Notes: generated from the sequence alone by a model not told the origin. Shown: positions 1,398-57,800, numbered from the stretch's first letter. The stretch: DNA of 64,000 nucleotides from an uncultured Cytophagales bacterium (GCA_963761725.1 CAVXHP010000006.1:637534-701533), one strand, 5' to 3'. Made by a program: numbers and translations.

Positions 1398-3185
1398 TTA
1401 CCCAACTTTCAAACTCTTCAATAGAAAGTGTTTTAAGCGTTTTTGATTCTTCAAAAGTCCTCCTTTCTGAGCTATTTTTACGCCCCATTGTGTATCTTTC
1501 AAGCCTTCGATAGTGTGTGCATCAGGACTGATACAGAGCCAAACATTTTTTTGCATAGCGTAATTAATCCATTTCCAATCCAAATCCAGACGATACGGAT
1601 TTGCATTTATTTCTATGGCTACATTATATTCTGCACAGGCATCAATTATTTTTTGGTGGTCTATTGGATAGCCTTCTCTTCTCAAAAGTAGCCTTCCTGT
1701 TGGGTGTCCTAGTATTTTTGTGTATGGATTTTGAATAGCTTTGAGTAGTCTTTCCGTTGCTTTTTCCTCACTCATTCCCAAAACAGAATGCACAGAAGCA
1801 ATAACGACTTCAAAACCTTTTAATACATTCTCATTATAATCCAAACTTCCATCATTCAAAATATCGGATTCTATTCCTTTAAAGATACGAAAGGGAGCTA
1901 ATTTTTTATTAAGTTCTTCTATTTCTCTCCATTGCTGTTCTACTCGTTCTTTATTTAGTCCATTTGCATAAAAAGCAGATTGAGAATGGTCAGAAATTAC
2001 CAAATAAGAATGACCTAACTTTTGTGCAGCTAAAGCCATTTGCTCAATAGTATTCTGACCGTCGCTATACTTGGAATGGTTATGAATTGTTCCCTTTAAA
2101 TCTTCCAATTGCAAAAGGTCATTTTGATTATTTTCTTTTGCCCATTTCCATTCTTGTAAATCATTCTAAACCATTTCTCTGAAAAGCAGGAATAAAATTC
2201 GAACCTACTTTTTGATAAATTTCTTCTTCTGAATTTGCTTTTTGATAAGAAGCCGAAAGCAAGGAAGTTTCTAAATGATTCGGATTATTTGAGGAATAAT
2301 TAAGATGAGAAATGGAAGCCGATTCTCTCAAAAGTTTGCCATAAAAATTATATTTGTCGGTAAAATGAATTTGGATATTCAAATCAATTTCATCAAAATT
2401 TCCTTTCCATAAAAAAGGCGAATTTTCTTTTTTGTTTTTACTCTCACTTATTCCGTCCAAATTATTCAAAAACTCAACTACTTCTTTACTTGATTTATTT
2501 TCATGTAAAACAATTACAAAAGAAAGCGTATCAATAATCGGTTCGTGCCTTGCTACTTGTCCTGCAAGGCTTATTTTTTCTATTAGTTCTTTCTTATCTA
2601 TTTTTGGAAACTTTCTAAACTTTTGAGAATATAATCAGAATACTGAAAAGCAATATTGATACGCTGTTTTCCTTCCTGTTTTCCTAAAAATTCTATTTGA
2701 CTAGCTATATTTTCGGCTGTCTTTTTGCCGAACCCTTTTGTTTTTTCTAAAGAACCATCTTGGGTAGCTTCGTACAAATCCTGAACTGTTTCAATGTCTA
2801 GTTCTGTCCAAATAACACGAATTTTTTTTGCTCCCAAACCTTTAATATTCAACATTTCAAAAACTCCTACTGGCGTTTGTTCTGTAAGTTCGTTCAATTC
2901 TTTAAAACTTCCATTTTCTAAAAGTGAAGCTATTTTATCACTCATATTCTGACTAAAACCTAAAGCGATAAGTTCTTTTTGAGATAATTTTGCAGCTTCT
3001 TCGTTTAGATTTTCTAATCGTGTAGCTGTTCCAGTATAAGAACGTACTTTGAAAGGGTTTTCATTGTGAAGTTCTAGTAAAGAACCTGTTAGTTTGAAGG
3101 CTTGAGCAAGCTGTTTGTTAGTCATCTTTTGAAGTAGAAAGGGATAGAAAAGAGGTAGATTTATTTCTCTGGCAAAGATAAGCAA
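1398..3185 (-). pseudogene. polX: DNA polymerase X family (Pol beta-like N-terminal 8kDa/HhH domain + C-terminal PHP phosphoesterase), broken into at least 3 ORFs (2598-3185, 2161-2469, 1398-2114)
   Basis: N-terminal fragment has the PolX lyase/HhH signature (NPFKVRSY, GLGAKKI, GFGKKTAENI). C-terminal fragment has the PHP motif HNHSKYSDG...ISDHS. The three pieces total ~535 aa over ~1.79 kb, the size of an intact PolX. Frame changes and an uncovered 128-nt gap (2470-2597) separate the fragments. Confidence 0.65.
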
Positions 3186-3223
3186 AAACTACTATTCTTG
3201 TTTCCTTGTTTTGAAGCATTACA

Positions 3224-5978: not shown

Positions 5979-6818
5979 ATGAAAACTCGTTTTACTTCTA
6001 CTACTATTTTTTCAATTTTACTTTCTGCTTTCGGATTAGCTATTCTGATTTTGGGAAGTAGTTTTTTTCCTATTTCTTTGAAAGAAAATAAAGTATATTC
6101 CACTTCCTCTACTTTTCCTTCTACTTTTTTATTTCCTTCTCATTTGCTCAAAACCCAGCAAGACACAACAGGAATGGTTTTCGTAAAAGGAAGCGTTTTC
6201 AATATGGGTAGTACTGTCTTTGAAAATGAAATGCCCATTCATGAAGTGGAATTAGATGATTTTTATATTGGAAGATATGAAGTAACAGTAAAACAGTACC
6301 GAGAATTTTGTGAAGCAACAGGAAGAGATATGCCCAAAAAACCTATGTGGGGTTGGGATGATACGCATCCAATTGTTGGTATAACTTGGGACGATGCAAG
6401 TCAGTACGCAGAATGGGTAGGTAAAAGATTACCGACAGAAGCAGAATGGGAATATGCAGCACGAGGAGGTTTGAAAACTCAAAATTATATCTATGCAGGT
6501 GCAAATTATGCCGAAGTAGTAGGGTGGTTTGAAAAAAATTCAGTAGAAATGGTACAGCCTGTTGGTCTAAAAAGACCTAATGAATTAGGAATTTATGATA
6601 TGTCTGGAAATGTTTGGGAATGGTGTTCTGACCATTATGGACGATATAGACAATTGCGTGAAAAAAATCCTAAAGGTGTCCCGCAAGGACTGAATCGTTG
6701 CGTTAGAGGAGGTAGTTGGTTTGGAAATAAAGGAAATCTACGTACAGCAAATCGCTATTACAATCCTCAAGGTTTTGGTAGTAATTTGATTGGATTTAGA
6801 GTAGTAATGGATAAATAA
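5979..6818 (+). CDS. FGE-sulfatase / formylglycine-generating enzyme (SUMF1)-like domain protein with N-terminal signal/TM segment
   Basis: Motifs GRYEVTVKQYREF, WEYAARGG, YDMSGNVWEWCSD, RCVRGGSWF are typical of the FGE-sulfatase (DUF323) fold. Confidence 0.75.
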   Translation: MKTRFTSTTIFSILLSAFGLAILILGSSFFPISLKENKVYSTSSTFPSTFLFPSHLLKTQQDTTGMVFVKGSVFNMGSTVFENEMPIHEVELDDFYIGRYEVTVKQYREFCEATGRDMPKKPMWGWDDTHPIVGITWDDASQYAEWVGKRLPTEAEWEYAARGGLKTQNYIYAGANYAEVVGWFEKNSVEMVQPVGLKRPNELGIYDMSGNVWEWCSDHYGRYRQLREKNPKGVPQGLNRCVRGGSWFGNKGNLRTANRYYNPQGFGSNLIGFRVVMDK

Positions 6819-6820
6819 TC

Positions 6821-6925
6821 AGTTATCAGTTATTAGTTATTAGTTATTAGTTATTAGTTATTAGTTATTAGTTATTAGTTATCAGTTATTAGTTATTAGT
6901 TATCAGTTATTAGTTATTAGTTATA
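6821..6925. repeat. Heptamer tandem repeat (AGTTATY) x15, starting right after the stop of 5979..6818
   Basis: Direct reading: agttatc/agttatt units with no interruption over 105 nt. Confidence 0.9.
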
Positions 6926-6983
6926 GAGTGCGAAACTGCGTTTCTCTGATAATTATTGTAAATGAAAGTTTTTTAATAAAAAA

Positions 6984-7043
6984 AATTCGTAATTCGTAAT
7001 TCGTAATTCGTAATTCGTAATTCGTAATTCGTAATTCGTAATT
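6984..7043. repeat. Heptamer tandem repeat (AATTCGT) x8, between convergent gene ends
   Basis: aattcgt repeated 8 times then a partial unit. The same heptamer recurs at 47771-47795 and degenerate copies occur at 49041 and 54455-54532. Confidence 0.9.
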
Positions 7044-7060
7044 ATAATAAAATTAACTGA

Positions 7061-8386
7061 TTACTGTTCACTGATTACTGACTTAAGTTCCCAGTTTGCA
7101 GCATCTTGGTAGATTTCTCTGTTTGCTTCTTGAAATGCTTTTTGTGCTTCTGCGTAGTTTTCCATTCGTTTATAACATAACCCTAACAGAAAATAGTATT
7201 TCGAACGGTCTTCGTTTTCTAGTTTTGGAAACTGTTTGAATAGTTCTTTTAATACTACAATTCCCTCCTTATCTCTCACTGTTTTATAATTAGAAAGAGC
7301 TTTTAAAAAGTAGATTTCGTGTTTATTTTTTTCTAAAAACAAACACGAATCTGCCATTTTTATAGCTTCATTATACCGTTTTTCGTGTACATAAAGGCGT
7401 GTAAGATCAGCATAATAATTTGCATTTCTCTCCTTTGAATACTCTACTTTTCTTCTCAAAAAATTAATCACATCAGATTTGTCATCTTTTCGTCCTTCTA
7501 CTTGATTGATAAAAATTTGTGCAGGCGAATAATCTGGCTTTATAATAAGAGCAGTTTGGAGATAGCGAAGACTTCTATCAAAATCATATAGAAAAAAATA
7601 AACATAACCCAAATTATAATAATATTGAGGTGCCGTATTTTCTAACTCTGTTTTAAGTTTTTCATCCTTTATGCGTGCATAATACGTTTTCATTTCTTCT
7701 AAATCTTGCATACGAAAAGCACAACTGGTATAAATAAAAGCAGCTTTTTGAATGGGGTAAGCGTTTGAAGACGTTTTTTCTAAGATAGCTTTTGTGAGTT
7801 TTTGAGCCGTTTGATAGTCTGAATTTTGATACAAAATATTCGCTAAACAAAGAGCAATAGGAGGAGGAATATTATTTATATCTTCACTTTTGAGATAATC
7901 AGTTGCATAGCCTAGCGTTTTTTTATCAAATTTACTAACCTGATCAGAAAGAATAATTATACTTCCTAAAATTATACTTTTCTCTTCTTTATCAGAACTA
8001 GAAACATGTGATAATGCTGTTTCATAGTACGAAAATGCTTGTGGAATAGAATCCACTTTTTCATGCAAAATCCCTAATCTATAATTGGCTTCAAAATTAG
8101 TTTTGTCTACTTTAATGGCTTCTTTGTAGAGTTCAACAGCTTTTGGAATGTTTTTTAATTGTTCTAAATAAAAACCTGTATAATATAATAGTTCTGTATT
8201 TTCTGAATCTGCACTTAATTCTGTTCTCAAAAGATTTAATCCATCTTGAGGGTTTCCATTTTGAGCCATTTCTACAGCTTGTGTGTAAACTTTTGGTTGT
8301 GCTTGTAAAAAATTTACAGTAAAAAGTATAAAAAATAGAAAACTATTCAAAATAAAAAATCTAATAAATAACAAATTATTTCTCAT
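7061..8386 (-). CDS. TPR-repeat protein with N-terminal signal peptide
   Basis: Hydrophobic N-terminus. Recurring TPR-like A/Y/L patterns (ELYKEAIKVDKTNFEANYRLG, AFSYYETAL, AEAQKAFQEA). Confidence 0.7.
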   Translation of the reverse strand: MRNNLLFIRFFILNSFLFFILFTVNFLQAQPKVYTQAVEMAQNGNPQDGLNLLRTELSADSENTELLYYTGFYLEQLKNIPKAVELYKEAIKVDKTNFEANYRLGILHEKVDSIPQAFSYYETALSHVSSSDKEEKSIILGSIIILSDQVSKFDKKTLGYATDYLKSEDINNIPPPIALCLANILYQNSDYQTAQKLTKAILEKTSSNAYPIQKAAFIYTSCAFRMQDLEEMKTYYARIKDEKLKTELENTAPQYYYNLGYVYFFLYDFDRSLRYLQTALIIKPDYSPAQIFINQVEGRKDDKSDVINFLRRKVEYSKERNANYYADLTRLYVHEKRYNEAIKMADSCLFLEKNKHEIYFLKALSNYKTVRDKEGIVVLKELFKQFPKLENEDRSKYYFLLGLCYKRMENYAEAQKAFQEANREIYQDAANWELKSVISEQ

Positions 8387-11515: not shown

Positions 11516-11593
11516 ATGGGAATTGATTTAAGTAGTTGTCTAGTACAATTTTGTTGTTTTTAATTTTATTTTGTTAATAGTGCTATTTTGACT

Positions 11594-12181
11594 TTATGAA
11601 TCTGCAAAATTTATAGTATATTTTTTTCCAAACTGTGCTAATATCTCTAAAACGGCTTTTTCAAGTGTTTTTACATTTGTCCAAGCTGCTATATCCAACC
11701 AGTAATGTTTAATATGTTTCCATAGCATTTCAATGTAATTTAAGTCTGAACAATAAGAAGGAAGGAATTGAATGAATACATTTTTTTCTTTCCATTTTTT
11801 TATTGCTTCGTCCACTTTATGATTTCTGTGAGAACTAGCTCTATCTAAAATCAATATTATTTTCTGTCCTTTTGCTCGTTTTTCAATAAAATCATCTATA
11901 CAAACGATAAATGTATCTGCGTCCATAGCTTGATAAAATTCATAAAATTCATAAAATTCACTTTCATTATTCGTACGCATAAATCCTAAAATATTAGCTC
12001 CTCTAGCTCGTTGAGCAGGTAAAAACACCTTTTTAAGTGCTTCAGTAGCTTTTTCTTGCCAACCATACATACTATTAGGATTGAGATGAAAACTACTTTC
12101 ATCACTAAACCAAACTTCAACTTCTCCTTGAGTTTCTTGATTGAGCCACCATGCAATTTCAGATTTAAAAAAATCGTGCAT
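11594..12181 (-). CDS. IS630-family transposase, DDE_3 catalytic part (OrfB)
   Basis: DDE_3 signature DESSFHLNP...ILDRASSH...FLPSYCSDLNYIEMLW, typical of the IS630/Tc1-mariner DD(34)E transposases. Confidence 0.8.
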   Translation of the reverse strand: MHDFFKSEIAWWLNQETQGEVEVWFSDESSFHLNPNSMYGWQEKATEALKKVFLPAQRARGANILGFMRTNNESEFYEFYEFYQAMDADTFIVCIDDFIEKRAKGQKIILILDRASSHRNHKVDEAIKKWKEKNVFIQFLPSYCSDLNYIEMLWKHIKHYWLDIAAWTNVKTLEKAVLEILAQFGKKYTINFADS

Positions 12182-12201
12182 CCATTCGTCTCGTTGAGAT
12201 T

Positions 12202-12636
12202 TTAATGATTTTTGTATTCGTCTCCAGCTCCAATTCTTTTTTTTAAAAAGCGTTTGAGGACAGAGGGATTGGTTTCAATTTGATGTTCTTCTTTCAATAA
12301 AACAACAGTTCTTTTTAAATTTTGAGGTGTATTTTTTACACACTCTAAAATAATATCTTCATTCTCAACAGATAAGCTACTTTGAGAATGAGCCATGTTT
12401 TTATCTAAAAGACCCAAACAACCCATTGATTCATACTTATCAAACCAACTTTTTATGCTATTTTCACTCACATCAAATTGTATGGAAAGCTCCTTAATAG
12501 TCAATCTATGTTTGGAGCTTAAATAAATAGAACTAAATCGTTTACGTTCTCTTTCTAAGAGTTTTATATCTGTACTAGATAAATAACGGCGAAGTTCTTG
12601 TTCTTGAAAAATACTTAGAGTAGCTATGAAACGCAT
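12202..12636 (-). CDS. IS630-family transposase, N-terminal HTH part (OrfA)
   Basis: Winged-helix/HTH-like N-terminal region. Ends at a T8A5 run (TTTTTTTTAAAAA, 12238-12250). Confidence 0.7.
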   Translation of the reverse strand: MRFIATLSIFQEQELRRYLSSTDIKLLERERKRFSSIYLSSKHRLTIKELSIQFDVSENSIKSWFDKYESMGCLGLLDKNMAHSQSSLSVENEDIILECVKNTPQNLKRTVVLLKEEHQIETNPSVLKRFLKKRIGAGDEYKNH

Positions 12637-12796
12637 GAAAAATATAAAATTGTGTTTATTGAACTAAAAAACTAAATTTAACAAAATTGTAGCACATAAC
12701 TACTTAATTAAGATAATCAGAAATTAATTTCTCTAAACATTTGACCCACAACTATAATTGTGGGTTTCTTTATTGACAAAATCGTATAGAATTTTT

Positions 12797-14838: not shown

Positions 14839-14964
14839 GAATTGAAATTTGTTTGAGCGTTGAGGCTTGAACTAATCAATAGATTTTTATATAGGAAAGC
14901 CGAAATTCAATAGTTTTGAATTTCGGTTTTTTGTGTAATATATTTTAATTTAGTTCTTTTATTT

Positions 14965-15244
14965 CAATATGAGTGTCATTAATTCAATTTAAAATAGCTC
15001 TTCATTAGCTATAGAGTAGCATAACCTTTAGCTTCGGTGACTCGCTGCTCTTCGGGTGTAGAAAGGAATAGAAAATTAATTTTAAAAGCTACAGAGTAGC
15101 GTAACCTTGTTTTTAATTCTAATTTTCTCGCAAATCACAGAGTTTCGCTACTCTGTAGCTCTAATAAAGCTGTTCATAATGTTCTACCAAGGTTACGTTG
15201 CTCTGCAACTGAAAACCAAATACTTAAAAATGACACTCATATTG
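14965..15244. mobile_element. MITE-like element copy 1 (280 bp): 16-bp perfect TIRs CAATATGAGTGTCATT/AATGACACTCATATTG, TSD TTATTT
   Basis: Perfect TIRs. Flanking 6-bp direct duplication (14959-14964 and 15245-15250). Internal complementary modules AGCTACAGAGTAGCGTAACC / CGCTACTCTGTAGCT. Near-identical to copy 3. Confidence 0.8.
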
Positions 15245-25403: not shown

Positions 25404-25430
25404 AGTACAATTAAAATCTATTTGAAATAT

Positions 25431-25671
25431 CAATATGAGTGTCATTTTGAGTCATTGACTTTTAGTTGCAGCCGCAACGTAACCTTGGTAGAAGCTCAAA
25501 AGCGTATTTCAATAGAGCTACAGAGTAGCGAAACTTGCAATTGGGCAATTAAGAATAAAGTTACGCTACGTTGTAGCTTTTCAAATCAATTTTATTTTTG
25601 TTCTACCAAGGTAAAGCTACTCTGTAGCTAATAAATGCCTATTTTGATTTCTGCCAATGACACTCATATTG
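25431..25671. mobile_element. MITE-like element copy 2 (241 bp, inverted orientation relative to copy 1), TSD AAATAT
   Basis: Same perfect 16-bp TIRs. Flanking direct repeat AAATAT (25425-25430 / 25672-25677). Internal AGCTACAGAGTAGCG and GGTTACG..GCAACT modules. Confidence 0.8.
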
Positions 25672-25929
25672 AAATATATCAGAATTAAAATAAAGTATTT
25701 TTAGTAAAATAATTAAGTGAAAGTAAGCAAAAACTATCGTTTATGGGAATTTTTTAGTTTAATTTATTAAAAATACTTTTCAAAATTGAAAATCCTAAAA
25801 TCTTTTTGTATCTTTTAGTTTATTTATTCTGTGTCGCTCGTAGGGATACAAGCAACGGTAGAGCAAGTTTTTGTTCTAACAAATTATCTTTTTTTAAAAT
25901 AAAACGGTTGTCTGACAATTTTTGTGGAA

Positions 25930-40734: not shown

Positions 40735-40918
40735 GCCGTTGTTGGTCTTTAACTTCGGCTTGCCGTTGTGATTACCAACAACAGACATACACGAACAATT
40801 TATGAACTCACCACCAAAACTAAAAAGTTAAATGCGAAAAAAGTGTTTATCTTAGCTTACACATGTTTGAGTTGTTGGTCATCGTAACGGCAAGCCGAAA
40901 CTAAAGACCAACAACGGC
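40735..40918. repeat. ~184-bp element bounded by ~47-bp imperfect inverted repeats (GCCGTTGTTGGTCTTTAACTTCGGCTTGCCGTTGTGATTACCAACAAC ... GTTGTTGGTCATCGTAACGGCAAGCCGAAACTAAAGACCAACAACGGC)
   Basis: Long arms are reverse complements with a few mismatches. Shares the CCGTTGTTGGT/ACCAACAACGG core with the hairpins at 25930 and 53301. Confidence 0.6.
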
Positions 40919-47739: not shown

Positions 47740-47770
47740 TATCATAACTAGAATTTTTATAACAAGAAAA

Positions 47771-47795
47771 AATTCGTAATTCGTAATTCGTAATT
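47771..47795. repeat. Heptamer tandem repeat (AATTCGT) x3 abutting the stop of the GNAT gene
   Basis: Same heptamer as 6984-7043. Confidence 0.85.
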
Positions 47796-48280: not shown

Positions 48281-48408
48281 AATAAATTGAGAAAAAATAA
48301 GTAAAAAAGATACTTTTTAAAATTAGGTTCTGTAATTTTGCAGCCACAAAAATAATTTATTTAATTTACAAAGGACAACGTTTTACTAAAAAATATCTTC
48401 AAATCATT

Positions 48409-48688
48409 CAATATGAGTGTCATTAATTCAATTCAAAATAGCTCTTCATTAGCTACAGAGTAGCATAACCTTTAGCTTCGGTGACTCGCTGCTCTTCGGG
48501 TGTAGAAAGGAATAAAAAATTAATTTTAAAAGCTACAGAGTAGCGTAACCTTGTTTTTAATTTTAATTTTCTCGCAAATCACAGAGTTTCGCTACTCTGT
48601 AGCTCTAATAAAGCTGTTTGTAACGTTCTACCAAGGTTACGTTGCTCTGCAACTGAAAATCAAATACTTAAAAATGACACTCATATTG
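48409..48688. mobile_element. MITE-like element copy 3 (280 bp), TSD AATCATT
   Basis: Perfect TIRs. 7-bp flanking duplication (48402-48408 / 48689-48695). Differs from copy 1 by a few SNPs. Confidence 0.8.
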
Positions 48689-48747
48689 AATCATTAATGA
48701 CTTAATTAAAAGATTTAATAGACAAGTTATATTTTAAGTTAATTTTA

Positions 48748-48999
48748 CAATATGAGTGTCATTGGCGAAAATCGAAACAAGTATTTGTTAGCTACAGAGT
48801 AGCGTAACCTTTGTAGAAAAAGAATAAGAATTGATTTGAAAAGCTACAGCGTAGCGTAACCTTATTTTTAATTCTAATTTCATGAAAGTTGCAAGGTTTC
48901 GCTACGCTGTAGCTCTAATGAAGGTTATTATTTACTGTTCTACCAAGGTTACGTTGCGATGCAACTAAAACTCAATACTTAGAAATGACACTCATATTG
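48748..48999. mobile_element. MITE-like element copy 4 (252 bp), TSD ATTTTA, 59 bp downstream of copy 3
   Basis: Perfect TIRs. Flanking ATTTTA (48742-48747 / 49000-49005). Internal hairpin carries a compensatory pair change (CAGCGTAGCG/CGCTACGCTG vs CAGAGTAGCG/CGCTACTCTG in copy 1). Confidence 0.8.
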
Positions 49000-49086
49000 A
49001 TTTTAATTCGTAGTTTTTAATTGACTTCGTCGCTTTGACAGGTCGTAATTCGTAATTATTTAATTCATTCATAAATTCATAAAATT

Positions 49087-56089: not shown

Positions 56090-57271
56090 ATGAGATTGAT
56101 AAAATTTACCATTCTTTTTATCCTGATAACTCAGACCTTGCTTGCTCAAAAACCAATAACCAATGAGTCTTCAGCCATCGATAAAAAAGCATTGGAACTC
56201 CCTGACTCATTGACAAAAAACACAGATCTTATTGCAAATTATATTACTTCCAACTTTGCAACTGATGAAGACAAATCACGAGCAATATTTATTTGGGTTA
56301 CATCAAATATTGAATATGACATTGAAAATATGTTTGCAATGAATTTTTACGAAAAAAAAGAAGAAAAAATAGCAAAACCTCTTAAAACAAGAAAAGGAAT
56401 CTGCGAAAATTATGCTTTATTATTTACAGATATCTGTATTAAATCAGGTATTAAATCTTTTGTAGTTGAAGGTTATACAAAGCAAAATGGTTTTACTGAC
56501 TATATTCCTCATGCTTGGAGTGCAGCACTAATTGACAGTTCATGGGTTCTCTTTGATCCAACTTGGGGTTCAGGTTATGTAGATGGTGGAAAGTTTTTTA
56601 GAAAAATAAATAATGAATACTATAAAGCTAATCCAACAACACTCATCAAATCTCACATCCCTTTCGATTACTTATGGCAATTTGTGAATTATCCAATAAC
56701 AAACCAAGAATTTTACGAAGGAAAGATACAACAAGACAAAACTAAGCAGTTTTTCAACTTCAAAGACACATTGCAAGTTTATGAGAAACAGAATCATATT
56801 GACCAGTTAATTTCTACAGCATATCGTGTAGAAAAAAACGGAGTAAAAAACTCAATGATTTTTGATCAACTTCAACATTTGAAATTAGAAATAGAAAATG
56901 ACAGACAAAGAAAAACTGTAAATCTATACAATTCAGCAATTGTTGAATATAATAATGCAATTAATGGTTTAAATGAATTTATAAATTACAGAAACAAAAA
57001 ACTCACGCCAAGTAAAACTGATCCTGAAATACAGAGCATGATTGATATTATAGACAGTAAAATAGAAGAAGCAAAAGGTAAATTAGACCGAATTGCAAAT
57101 CCTGATGTAAACACAGCTAATATGATTCAGCAATTAACTAAATCAATAAATGATGTTTCAAAACAAGTGGAAGAGCAACAAGATTGGCTAACACTATATT
57201 TTAGTAAAGGTAAATTAGGACGGAAATCTATGTTTTATAAAGTAAGTTGGTTTGGTGTTCCTTTAAATTAA
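56090..57271 (+). CDS. Secreted transglutaminase-like cysteine-protease-fold domain protein with C-terminal coiled coil
   Basis: Signal peptide. Cys-His-Asp triad context GICENYALLF (Cys), IPHAWSAAL (His), VLFDPTWG (Asp). Confidence 0.65.
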   Translation: MRLIKFTILFILITQTLLAQKPITNESSAIDKKALELPDSLTKNTDLIANYITSNFATDEDKSRAIFIWVTSNIEYDIENMFAMNFYEKKEEKIAKPLKTRKGICENYALLFTDICIKSGIKSFVVEGYTKQNGFTDYIPHAWSAALIDSSWVLFDPTWGSGYVDGGKFFRKINNEYYKANPTTLIKSHIPFDYLWQFVNYPITNQEFYEGKIQQDKTKQFFNFKDTLQVYEKQNHIDQLISTAYRVEKNGVKNSMIFDQLQHLKLEIENDRQRKTVNLYNSAIVEYNNAINGLNEFINYRNKKLTPSKTDPEIQSMIDIIDSKIEEAKGKLDRIANPDVNTANMIQQLTKSINDVSKQVEEQQDWLTLYFSKGKLGRKSMFYKVSWFGVPLN

Positions 57272-57379
57272 AAGTTGTTTATCCCCTGCTTCTAATCTTA
57301 ATAGGCTTTTTTTATACCTTTCACTCATTTCCAAATGAGTAAGTAATCTATATTCAACACCTTGTCCTGTATTTACTAG

Positions 57380-57593
57380 TATAACGTGAACTCGGTATTA
57401 TGATTTAGTTCATTTGTGTATTTCCCCATTATCAACGTCTATTTTTTCAAAATAGACGATTGCTAAGGGAGTTTTGTGTTTTTTTACCTTAGCAATCGTC
57501 TGTTATCGCAGATAACAAGACGTTGATAATGGTGAAAAAATACAAAACGGTTACTAATAAGAACTATTTTAATACCGAGTTCACGTTAGTATA
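57380..57593. repeat. Nested palindromic element (214 bp): outer 20-bp IR TATAACGTGAACTCGGTATT / AATACCGAGTTCACGTTAGTATA enclosing perfect 14-bp IR pairs (CCATTATCAACGTC/GACGTTGATAATGG; GACGATTGCTAAGG/CCTTAGCAATCGTC) and the central palindrome TTATCGCAGATAA
   Basis: All arms read directly and verified as reverse complements. Confidence 0.65.
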
Positions 57594-57721
57594 TACACTA
57601 AAAAAACTCAACCAAAAACTTCAAGCAGAAATTAAGGAGGTTACAACTCTGACAGTTAGAAACTGTCAGCTATGTGACACAATGAAGGCATCACTTTTGC
57701 GTTTTGCTAACAAAATGTATC

Positions 57722-57777
57722 ACAGACTTCCCAGTCTGTGCAAAAATATAGTATTTCTAACAGACTAGGAAGTCTGT
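57722..57777. promoter_or_regulatory. Inverted repeat with internally palindromic arms (ACAGACTTCCCAGTCTGT ... ACAGACTAGGAAGTCTGT), 24 nt upstream of the C1 peptidase start
   Basis: Each arm is a 7-bp stem hairpin with a 4-nt loop (TCCC / AGGA). 20-nt AT-rich spacer. Same architecture as 16480-16543 and 9151-9247. Confidence 0.45.
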
Positions 57778-57800
57778 TTTACTTATAAATTCTATCTCAA

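Follow-up and report, generated by a model that had tools for sequence, protein, structure and literature searches.

The nested palindrome at positions 57380-57593 of the window (the whole 64-kb stretch of DNA that was analysed) is very probably a MITE, a non-autonomous derivative of an IS982-family insertion sequence (IS) living in Bernardetia (Cytophagales, Bacteroidota). A MITE was the first candidate listed in a preliminary description of the palindrome, and that choice is borne out by IS982-family ends, a 7-bp target-site duplication, copies at other loci and an apparent empty site in a relative. This identity explains a striking palindrome and marks the call of an 81-aa ORF through it as probably spurious. 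It also reveals a previously unannotated Bernardetia MITE family, with several subfamilies that have one terminal repeat, together with its IS982-family parent. A MITE is an ordinary kind of mobile DNA and not a regulatory RNA, and there is IS982-derived precedent for it in Cardinium.

The inverted-repeat structure was confirmed by direct reading of the sequence and by a repeat finder applied to the 64-kb window (Table 1). It lies, as had been described, in a gap of some 530 bp before the C1 peptidase gene (57272-57800, measuring 529 bp). The three nested arm pairs are real, but only the outer pair is fully perfect; the middle and inner pairs, with the degrees of pairing given in Table 1, contain perfect 15-nt cores (CCATTATCAACGTCT / AGACGTTGATAATGG and AGACGATTGCTAAGG / CCTTAGCAATCGTCT, respectively). 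The outer repeat had been given as 20/18 nt with a leading 'TA', and the perfect repeat is instead 19 nt without that leading 'TA'. The arms are concentric only roughly, since the centres of the pairs differ (57485, 57479 and 57477.5). The mini-palindrome that had been placed at the centre is found instead on the 3' side, flanked by the 3' arms of the inner and middle pairs; what occupies the geometric centre of the palindrome (about 57478-57485) is the inner pair's 18-nt loop. The off-centre position of this mini-hairpin is kept in related elements at the loci L011, L039 and L016.

Table 1. Coordinates of the MITE, its ends, its interior and the ORF that touches it (window positions)
Feature	Position	Strand	Remarks
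MITE body, non-coding, ACGTG...CACGT	57384-57586	.	203 bp; ends identical to IS982-family IS terminal repeats
Left target-site duplication TAGTATA	57377-57383	.	7 bp; direct reading; identical to right copy
Right target-site duplication TAGTATA	57587-57593	.	7 bp; direct reading; identical to left copy
Left terminal inverted repeat ACGTGAACTCGGTATTA	57384-57400	+	17 nt; matches IS terminal repeats
Right terminal inverted repeat	57570-57586	-	perfect complement of left repeat
Outer inverted repeat TAACGTGAACTCGGTATTA	57382-57400 / 57570-57588		19 nt, 100% complementary, 169 nt between arms
Middle stem, 5' arm, part of unit U1	57421-57440	+	95% pairing with 57518-57537 (20 nt)
Middle stem, 3' arm, part of unit U4	57518-57537	-	repeat-finder pairing
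Inner stem, 5' arm, unit U2 (inverted copy of unit)	57451-57468	-	94% pairing with 57487-57504 (18 nt)
Inner stem, 3' arm, part of unit U3	57487-57504	+	repeat-finder pairing
Mini-hairpin GTTATC-GCA-GATAAC, off-centre	57503-57517	.	seen in RNA and DNA folds
Unit U1	57413-57440	+	
Unit U2	57451-57480	-	
Unit U3	57473-57501	+	
Unit U4	57518-57548	-	
Segment homologous to IS interior (within transposase gene)	57512-57538	+	includes 18-nt exact match TAACAAGACGTTGATAAT
81-aa ORF, TTG start	57523-57768	+	no Pfam family match

The structure is far from what chance would provide. With up to three mismatches allowed, the outer 19-mer occurs in the 64-kb window just at its two arm sites, and none of 100 shuffled sequences contained any match. 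The predicted RNA fold of the plus strand has an energy of -90 kcal/mol, compared with -38.9 +/- 4.4 for shuffled sequences (z = -11.7); the minus strand gives z = -13.2, and a fold with DNA parameters z = -12.8. Equal stability of the two strands is to be expected of a DNA palindrome and points to no particular transcript.

The boundaries of the element were set at ACGTG...CACGT, and the 7-bp duplication follows from that reading. The true terminal repeat is therefore 17 nt long and appears to be 19 nt because the targets are AT-rich and often have TA at their start and end. Ends of IS982-family elements are described in ISfinder as 'AC'. Other short elements with these ends are flanked by the duplications TAAAATA (L011), AAATTTA (L012), TTTTTTA (L039) and TAAATA (L001; 6 bp), and full copies of the IS by TATAATA (L014), TAATTAA (L061) and TCATTA (L009; 6 bp); the duplications are imperfect for the short elements of L002 and L004 and for the IS of L062. 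The element in the window is short and has no transposase gene, the single ORF touching it being without a Pfam match.

A feature of the flanks lies outside these duplications. In three independent left flanks the sequence TTTACT is found exactly 7 nt from the element end (window 57371-57376, L011 4954-4959 and L002 1901-1906), and the left flanks of L011 and L002 have 13 nt in common, TTTACTTAAAATA. The common TTTACT flank may reflect a preferred target, coincidence or an element end longer than the one set here.

The same ends also bound a complete insertion sequence. An IS of 1048 bp in L009 (6542-7589), bounded by the terminal repeats of the MITE, has a single ORF of 301 aa, the product of which scores 212.9 bits against the NCBIfam model NF033520 'IS982 family transposase' (cutoff 130) and matches Pfam DDE_Tnp_1_3 at 1.6e-56; the same protein falls far short of the cutoffs of the IS5 and IS4 models. 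A transposase 99-100% identical to it is present in L003, L007 and L014, and homologues with the same ends are found in L061 (98% identity) and in L062, from Bernardetia sp. MNP-M8 (87%), the MNP-M8 homologue being labelled 'IS982 family transposase' by NCBI. In L009, L014, L003, L007, L061 and L062 the IS with these ends is 1048-1050 bp long, with a transposase of 301-302 aa. According to the ISfinder description, IS982-family elements measure about 1 kb, have one ORF and short target duplications, and carry terminal repeats that end in AC; the Bernardetia IS, at ~1 kb with one ORF, ends ACGTG...CACGT and 6-7-bp duplications, agrees with this description. Since the same 17-nt ends bound an IS with an IS982-family transposase, the outer arms of the palindrome are IS terminal inverted repeats.

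The 64-kb window contains no IS982-type transposase. The DDE transposase of the full-length IS would bind the 17-nt terminal repeats and move the MITE in trans, probably by making a staggered 7-bp cut at AT-rich targets and so duplicating 7 bp.

Other mobile elements were seen near the parental IS. The IS copy in L014 is interrupted by a second, IS630-like element (2038-3213; two ORFs, DDE-type), to which positions 11527-12707 of the window are 85% identical; the ORFs of the window copy lie at 11594-12181 and 12202-12636, on the minus strand. In L061 (sample SRR14415815) a Y1_Tnp gene of IS200/IS605 or RAYT type occupies positions 1-515, ~850 bp from the IS982 copy, and could be relevant to the REP-like small hairpins in these genomes.

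A scan with the 19-mer, covering one genome per species, found it in 14 loci, all in genomes or MAGs of Bernardetia or closely related Cytophagales. With mismatches allowed, the repeat motif forms inverted pairs in which ACGTG is always outermost. In L001, L004, L011, L012 and the window the members of a pair are 174-207 bp apart and enclose several differing interiors; wider pairs occur in L002 (412 bp), L009 (1052 bp) and L014 (2.2 kb). The window has one copy of the MITE. The same MITE is present in L011, a locus of a Bernardetia MAG, with 95.6% identity over 225 nt, where it lies between different genes and has another duplication, and in L008, from the same MAG, a copy is cut by the contig end. 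A diverged copy, L039, on a metagenome contig, keeps the order of the internal units and has its own duplication. It was the only true relative among the 40 loci of a metagenome-wide scan with the 17-mer; the remaining 39 were set aside as chance, being isolated single matches on contigs of 34-66% G+C with no partner repeat. The search for other copies and target-site duplications, proposed in the preliminary description as a check, was thus positive on both counts. The perfection of the arms, which had been read as pointing to a recently active or selected structure, fits recent activity rather than selection.

At least five short elements with different interiors carry the same ends. Besides the MITE of the window, at least four further subfamilies with the 17-nt repeat and unrelated interiors can be distinguished: L005/L010/L013, L006, L001/L012/L002 and L004. 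L002 looks like an L001-type element with a palindromic insertion of ~230 bp. The 1.2-kb contig L006 has one of these ends at either limit, evidently because assembly breaks at such repeats. Such elements are of practical interest: they break assemblies, both L006 and L008 ending in them, and they mark recent insertions, which is useful in strain typing. In L011 (4935-5200) a flanking hairpin, CCTCAGAAGCGT ... ACGCTTCTGAGG, holds the MITE copy in its loop, which suggests that the MITE inserted into a pre-existing palindrome or terminator.

The interior of the MITE consists of four copies of a unit of ~30 nt, in + - + - orientation (Table 1), and this arrangement explains the nesting of the arms, which would be a by-product. 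U1 and U4, and likewise U2 and U3, pair almost perfectly. U1 and U3 form a direct repeat with 74% similarity, so that U1 can also pair with U2, and U3 with U4. The predicted fold of L039 is this alternative one, with two side-by-side hairpins inside the terminal stem instead of nested ones. Several interior blocks are conserved (CAACGTCT, TTG(C/A)TAAGG, CAATCGT, ATYGAAGATAA and ACGTTG..AATGG), being kept in copies down to ~73% identity.

One part of the interior can be traced to the IS. The segment at 57512-57538 matches L009 at about 7217-7246 with a score of 38, against a mean of 22.7 (sd 2.4, maximum 30) for 200 shuffled sequences; the match comprises 18 nt that are exact, or 29 nt with one gap, and the motif is also present in the IS copies of L003 and L014. 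These 18 nt, exactly as found within the transposase gene, favour a derivation of the MITE from the IS. Outside the 17-nt repeat, the subterminal 50 nt are not significantly similar to the ends of the IS, with 45 of 500 shuffled sequences scoring as well. The MITE probably arose when an IS copy lost part of its interior and the ~30-nt unit was then duplicated in inverted orientation.

Alternatively, the interior could be a palindromic module that propagates independently. It might be an additional element that has entered, or been taken up by, several different MITE shells, or else an array of protein-binding sites under selection at the sequence level, for example subterminal sites for the transposase or sites for a host factor. 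This reading is rather unlikely. If it were true, the palindrome would be a composite of two mobile layers and not a simple deletion derivative.

Units of this kind were also seen in other settings. L016 (7300-7540, minus strand) has an interior 73% identical to that of the MITE in the window, with the same unit order and mini-hairpin, and has different outer arms, which are longer and richer in G+C (GCTCGTGTCCCCACCATAGCCGTCAAGCTAT / ATAGCTTGATGGCTATGGTGGAGACACGAGC); possible explanations are the nesting of one element in another, a related IS982 terminal repeat and module capture. L008 (3810-3970) contains another nested palindrome, with outer arms GGGTTGTGTAGTAAAATTGTGTTT / AAACACAATTTTACTACACAACCC and an inner single hairpin built from the same kind of unit (CCTTATCAAGGTCT ... 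AGACCATTGCTAAGG).

The surroundings of the MITE are consistent with a recent arrival. The stop codon of the co-directional upstream gene lies 112 nt before the element, and the peptidase start codon 213 nt after it. Four other Bernardetia assemblies yielded peptidase orthologues (80-85% identity) together with neighbouring sequence, and none has the MITE. In L015 (Bernardetia sp. MNP-M8) the sequence TTATTTACTATTATC...CTAAAAAAAACTTGACC, also delimited as TTATTTACTATTATC...CTAAAAAAAACTTGACCAAAAATTTCAAGCAG, spans the insertion point in the alignment and lacks the element. The left-flank homology in this one relative is short, ~12/15 to 14/16 nt (about 15-17 nt), because a separate indel, that of the transglutaminase-like gene, ends close by. 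The alignment is thus good but not conclusive evidence of an empty site, the probability of its arising by chance being very roughly estimated at ~0.003. To the right of the MITE, continuous homology resumes at 57600, just beyond the right duplication, and the leader that is conserved in relatives corresponds to window 57600/57675-57800 only. In L018-L020 the entire intergenic spacer is 122 bp, and therefore the peptidase promoter most likely lies downstream of the MITE. The MITE would here be a recent, probably neutral insertion, and its target appears to have been a non-conserved spacer between the transglutaminase-like gene and the conserved promoter-proximal leader of the peptidase. The first 64 nt of the 81-aa ORF are inside the MITE, and that part is absent from the orthologous leader of L015; together with the absence of a Pfam match, this is consistent with the earlier judgement of the ORF as spurious, which it probably is.

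The transglutaminase-like gene (56090-57271; 393 aa, Pfam Transglut_core 1.4e-15) stands between an RlaP-family gene and the peptidase gene. It is missing from this place in the four relatives, MNP-M8 having an unrelated 107-aa ORF instead, and the right edge of the indel is within about 20 nt of the MITE insertion site.

A very stable predicted fold on both strands, 213 nt upstream of the peptidase start codon and on the coding strand, could also be taken for a regulator of the C1 peptidase gene at the RNA level, either a structured cis-acting RNA (an attenuator or riboregulator in the 5' UTR) or a small RNA, its nested stems having been maintained by selection. This is highly improbable. Any DNA palindrome would fold with equal stability on both strands; the MITE is absent from the orthologous leader in the four Bernardetia relatives; the 122-bp spacer of L018-L020 would place the promoter downstream of the MITE position; and in L011 the same MITE is upstream of unrelated genes. 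A scan of Rfam with permissive E-values found no family and only generic microRNA-precursor hairpins, the best match (MIR5380) reaching 34.3 bits against a gathering score of 150; the plant and animal microRNA-precursor models that were matched have gathering scores of 117-150, and all matches were at 34.3 bits or less. The inner helices show disruptions without compensatory changes: in an alignment of four copies, for which the power is low, no pair of the middle and inner helices was changed on both sides and 11 vary only by unpairing. Some pairs in helix 1 seem to be changed on both sides, but these were rejected as evidence since they come from aligning the unrelated outer arms of L016. 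The topology of the L039 fold differs as well. Thus the covariation check suggested for the RNA fold gave no compensatory changes in the middle and inner stems of the four copies, and the riboregulator, terminator and cruciform candidates are left unsupported (no Rfam family, no compensatory changes, a differing L039 fold and no T-run). Some caution follows: similar hairpins in these genomes are not to be read as riboregulators.

A perfect 19-nt inverted repeat around ~170 bp of intergenic DNA, upstream of a gene for a secreted protein in a Bacteroidota genome, is also reminiscent of an invertible DNA switch (inverton), in which a site-specific recombinase would flip a promoter upstream of the peptidase gene, as in the Mpi-type switches of Bacteroides. 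Repeat pairs with different interiors at several loci would suit such a switch, and AACGTGAAC within the repeat is, presumably, vaguely like the Mpi consensus. However, the same repeats bound a 1.05-kb IS with an IS982-family DDE transposase, and the flanking direct repeats of 6-7 bp, which are specific to each copy, are not made by inversion. The Bacteroidetes -7 box TAnnTTTG is absent from 57382-57588 on either strand, and the neighbouring genes and their orthologues (WYL, RlaP, transglutaminase-like, peptidase and metallo-beta-lactamase-fold) include no recombinases. An inverton here is scarcely credible.

The MITE may, on the other hand, have been co-opted, either as a terminator, an insulator or an mRNA-stabilising 3' structure for the transglutaminase-like gene, or as an outward or hybrid promoter for the peptidase. 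The stem is extremely stable, the element lies 112 nt past the stop codon of the co-directional upstream gene, and the IS982-family elements IS1187, ISAba4 and ISAba825 supply outward or hybrid promoters (PMC9330008). Given such promoter creation in the IS982 family (PMC9330008), the insertion could conceivably influence the secreted cysteine peptidase downstream, though there is no indication of this here. No T-run follows the stem on either strand, and a terminator scan is silent at the MITE. The single sigma-70-like match, at the left junction, is weak (9/12), points into the element and is no more than is found in shuffled sequences; nor is there a Bacteroidetes -7 box. Since the insertion is absent in relatives, any role would be recent and unselected. 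Co-option is accordingly unlikely, and an incidental effect of the hairpin on read-through or mRNA stability is given a similarly low probability.

As a MITE of IS982 origin, the element has its closest described counterpart in Cardinium, where the ~240-bp MITECca01 is derived from the IS982-family ISCca4, and where there are 169 MITE copies and two closely related MITEs (PMC9769881). Like MITECca01, which is found mostly in intergenic regions, the Bernardetia MITE is short and non-coding, has terminal repeats matching those of an IS982-family IS in its own lineage, retains a small piece of parental sequence, and belongs to a Cytophagales/Bacteroidota host. The two differ in that the terminal repeat and interior are presumably unrelated, the comparison being by description, and in the four-unit nested-palindrome interior found here. 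A single terminal repeat is combined with at least five interiors in Bernardetia, in contrast to the two closely related MITEs of Cardinium. A search of a literature library for transposable elements of Bernardetia found no paper. Relative to the IS982-family IS of Bernardetia itself (L009, L061 and L062), the MITE has an identical 17-nt repeat beginning with AC, 6-7-bp duplications at AT-rich targets and a common interior segment of 29 nt, but it lacks a transposase gene, is 203 bp long as against ~1050 bp, and has halves that are near mirror images, whereas those of the IS are not.

Other bacterial MITEs derived from IS elements include the Correia elements of Neisseria and the RUP elements of Streptococcus pneumoniae, which are IS630-related. 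These resemble the present MITE in their size of 100-300 bp, terminal repeats, target duplications, intergenic location, several subtypes and the long hairpins that they form if transcribed, and differ from it in parental family. For Correia elements promoter, IHF-site and RNase III processing functions have been described, and none of these is evident for this MITE. The interior, made of short units of ~30 nt in alternating orientation, is also similar to the REP and BIME sequences of enterobacteria; these are, however, without IS982 terminal repeats and target duplication, both of which enclose the units here.

Further repeats and hairpins occur elsewhere in the window. A second MITE-like family is present at 14963-15244, 48407-48688, 48741-49007 and 25427-25675, with two 282-nt copies that are 97% identical and further related copies; its ends are (T)CAATATGAGTGTCATT in inverted orientation, its interior has GCTACAGAGTAGCGTAACC hairpins, and two or three copies lie side by side at 48402-49007. 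This is presumably the 'other family' hinted at in the preliminary description, which had suggested that the palindrome might be a MITE of a different family. The longest inverted repeat in the window, at 40735-40918 (GCCGTTGTTGGTCTTTAACTTCGGCTTGCCGTTGTGATTACCAACAAC...), is 48 nt long and 90% complementary, with 88 nt between its arms.

The peptidase leader also contains hairpins, perhaps a true structure of the leader, perhaps a repeat of REP-like kind. Twin hairpins at 57717-57782 have the same stem and near-complementary loops, CACAGACT-TCCC-AGTCTGTG (57721-57740) and AACAGACT-AGGA-AGTCTGTT (57759-57778). Both recur without any base change in Bernardetia sp. MNP-M8 (L015 3921-3980), and both are flagged as terminator-like; L018-L020 seem to retain the second of the twins only. 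A third leader hairpin, CTGACAGTT-AGA-AACTGTCAG (57650-57670), corresponds to one in L015 that differs in its stem. Heptamer tandem arrays are found at 6797-7047, where (AGTTATT)n is followed by (ATTCGTA)n, and (ATTCGTA)n recurs at 47751-47795 with a similar A-rich lead-in.
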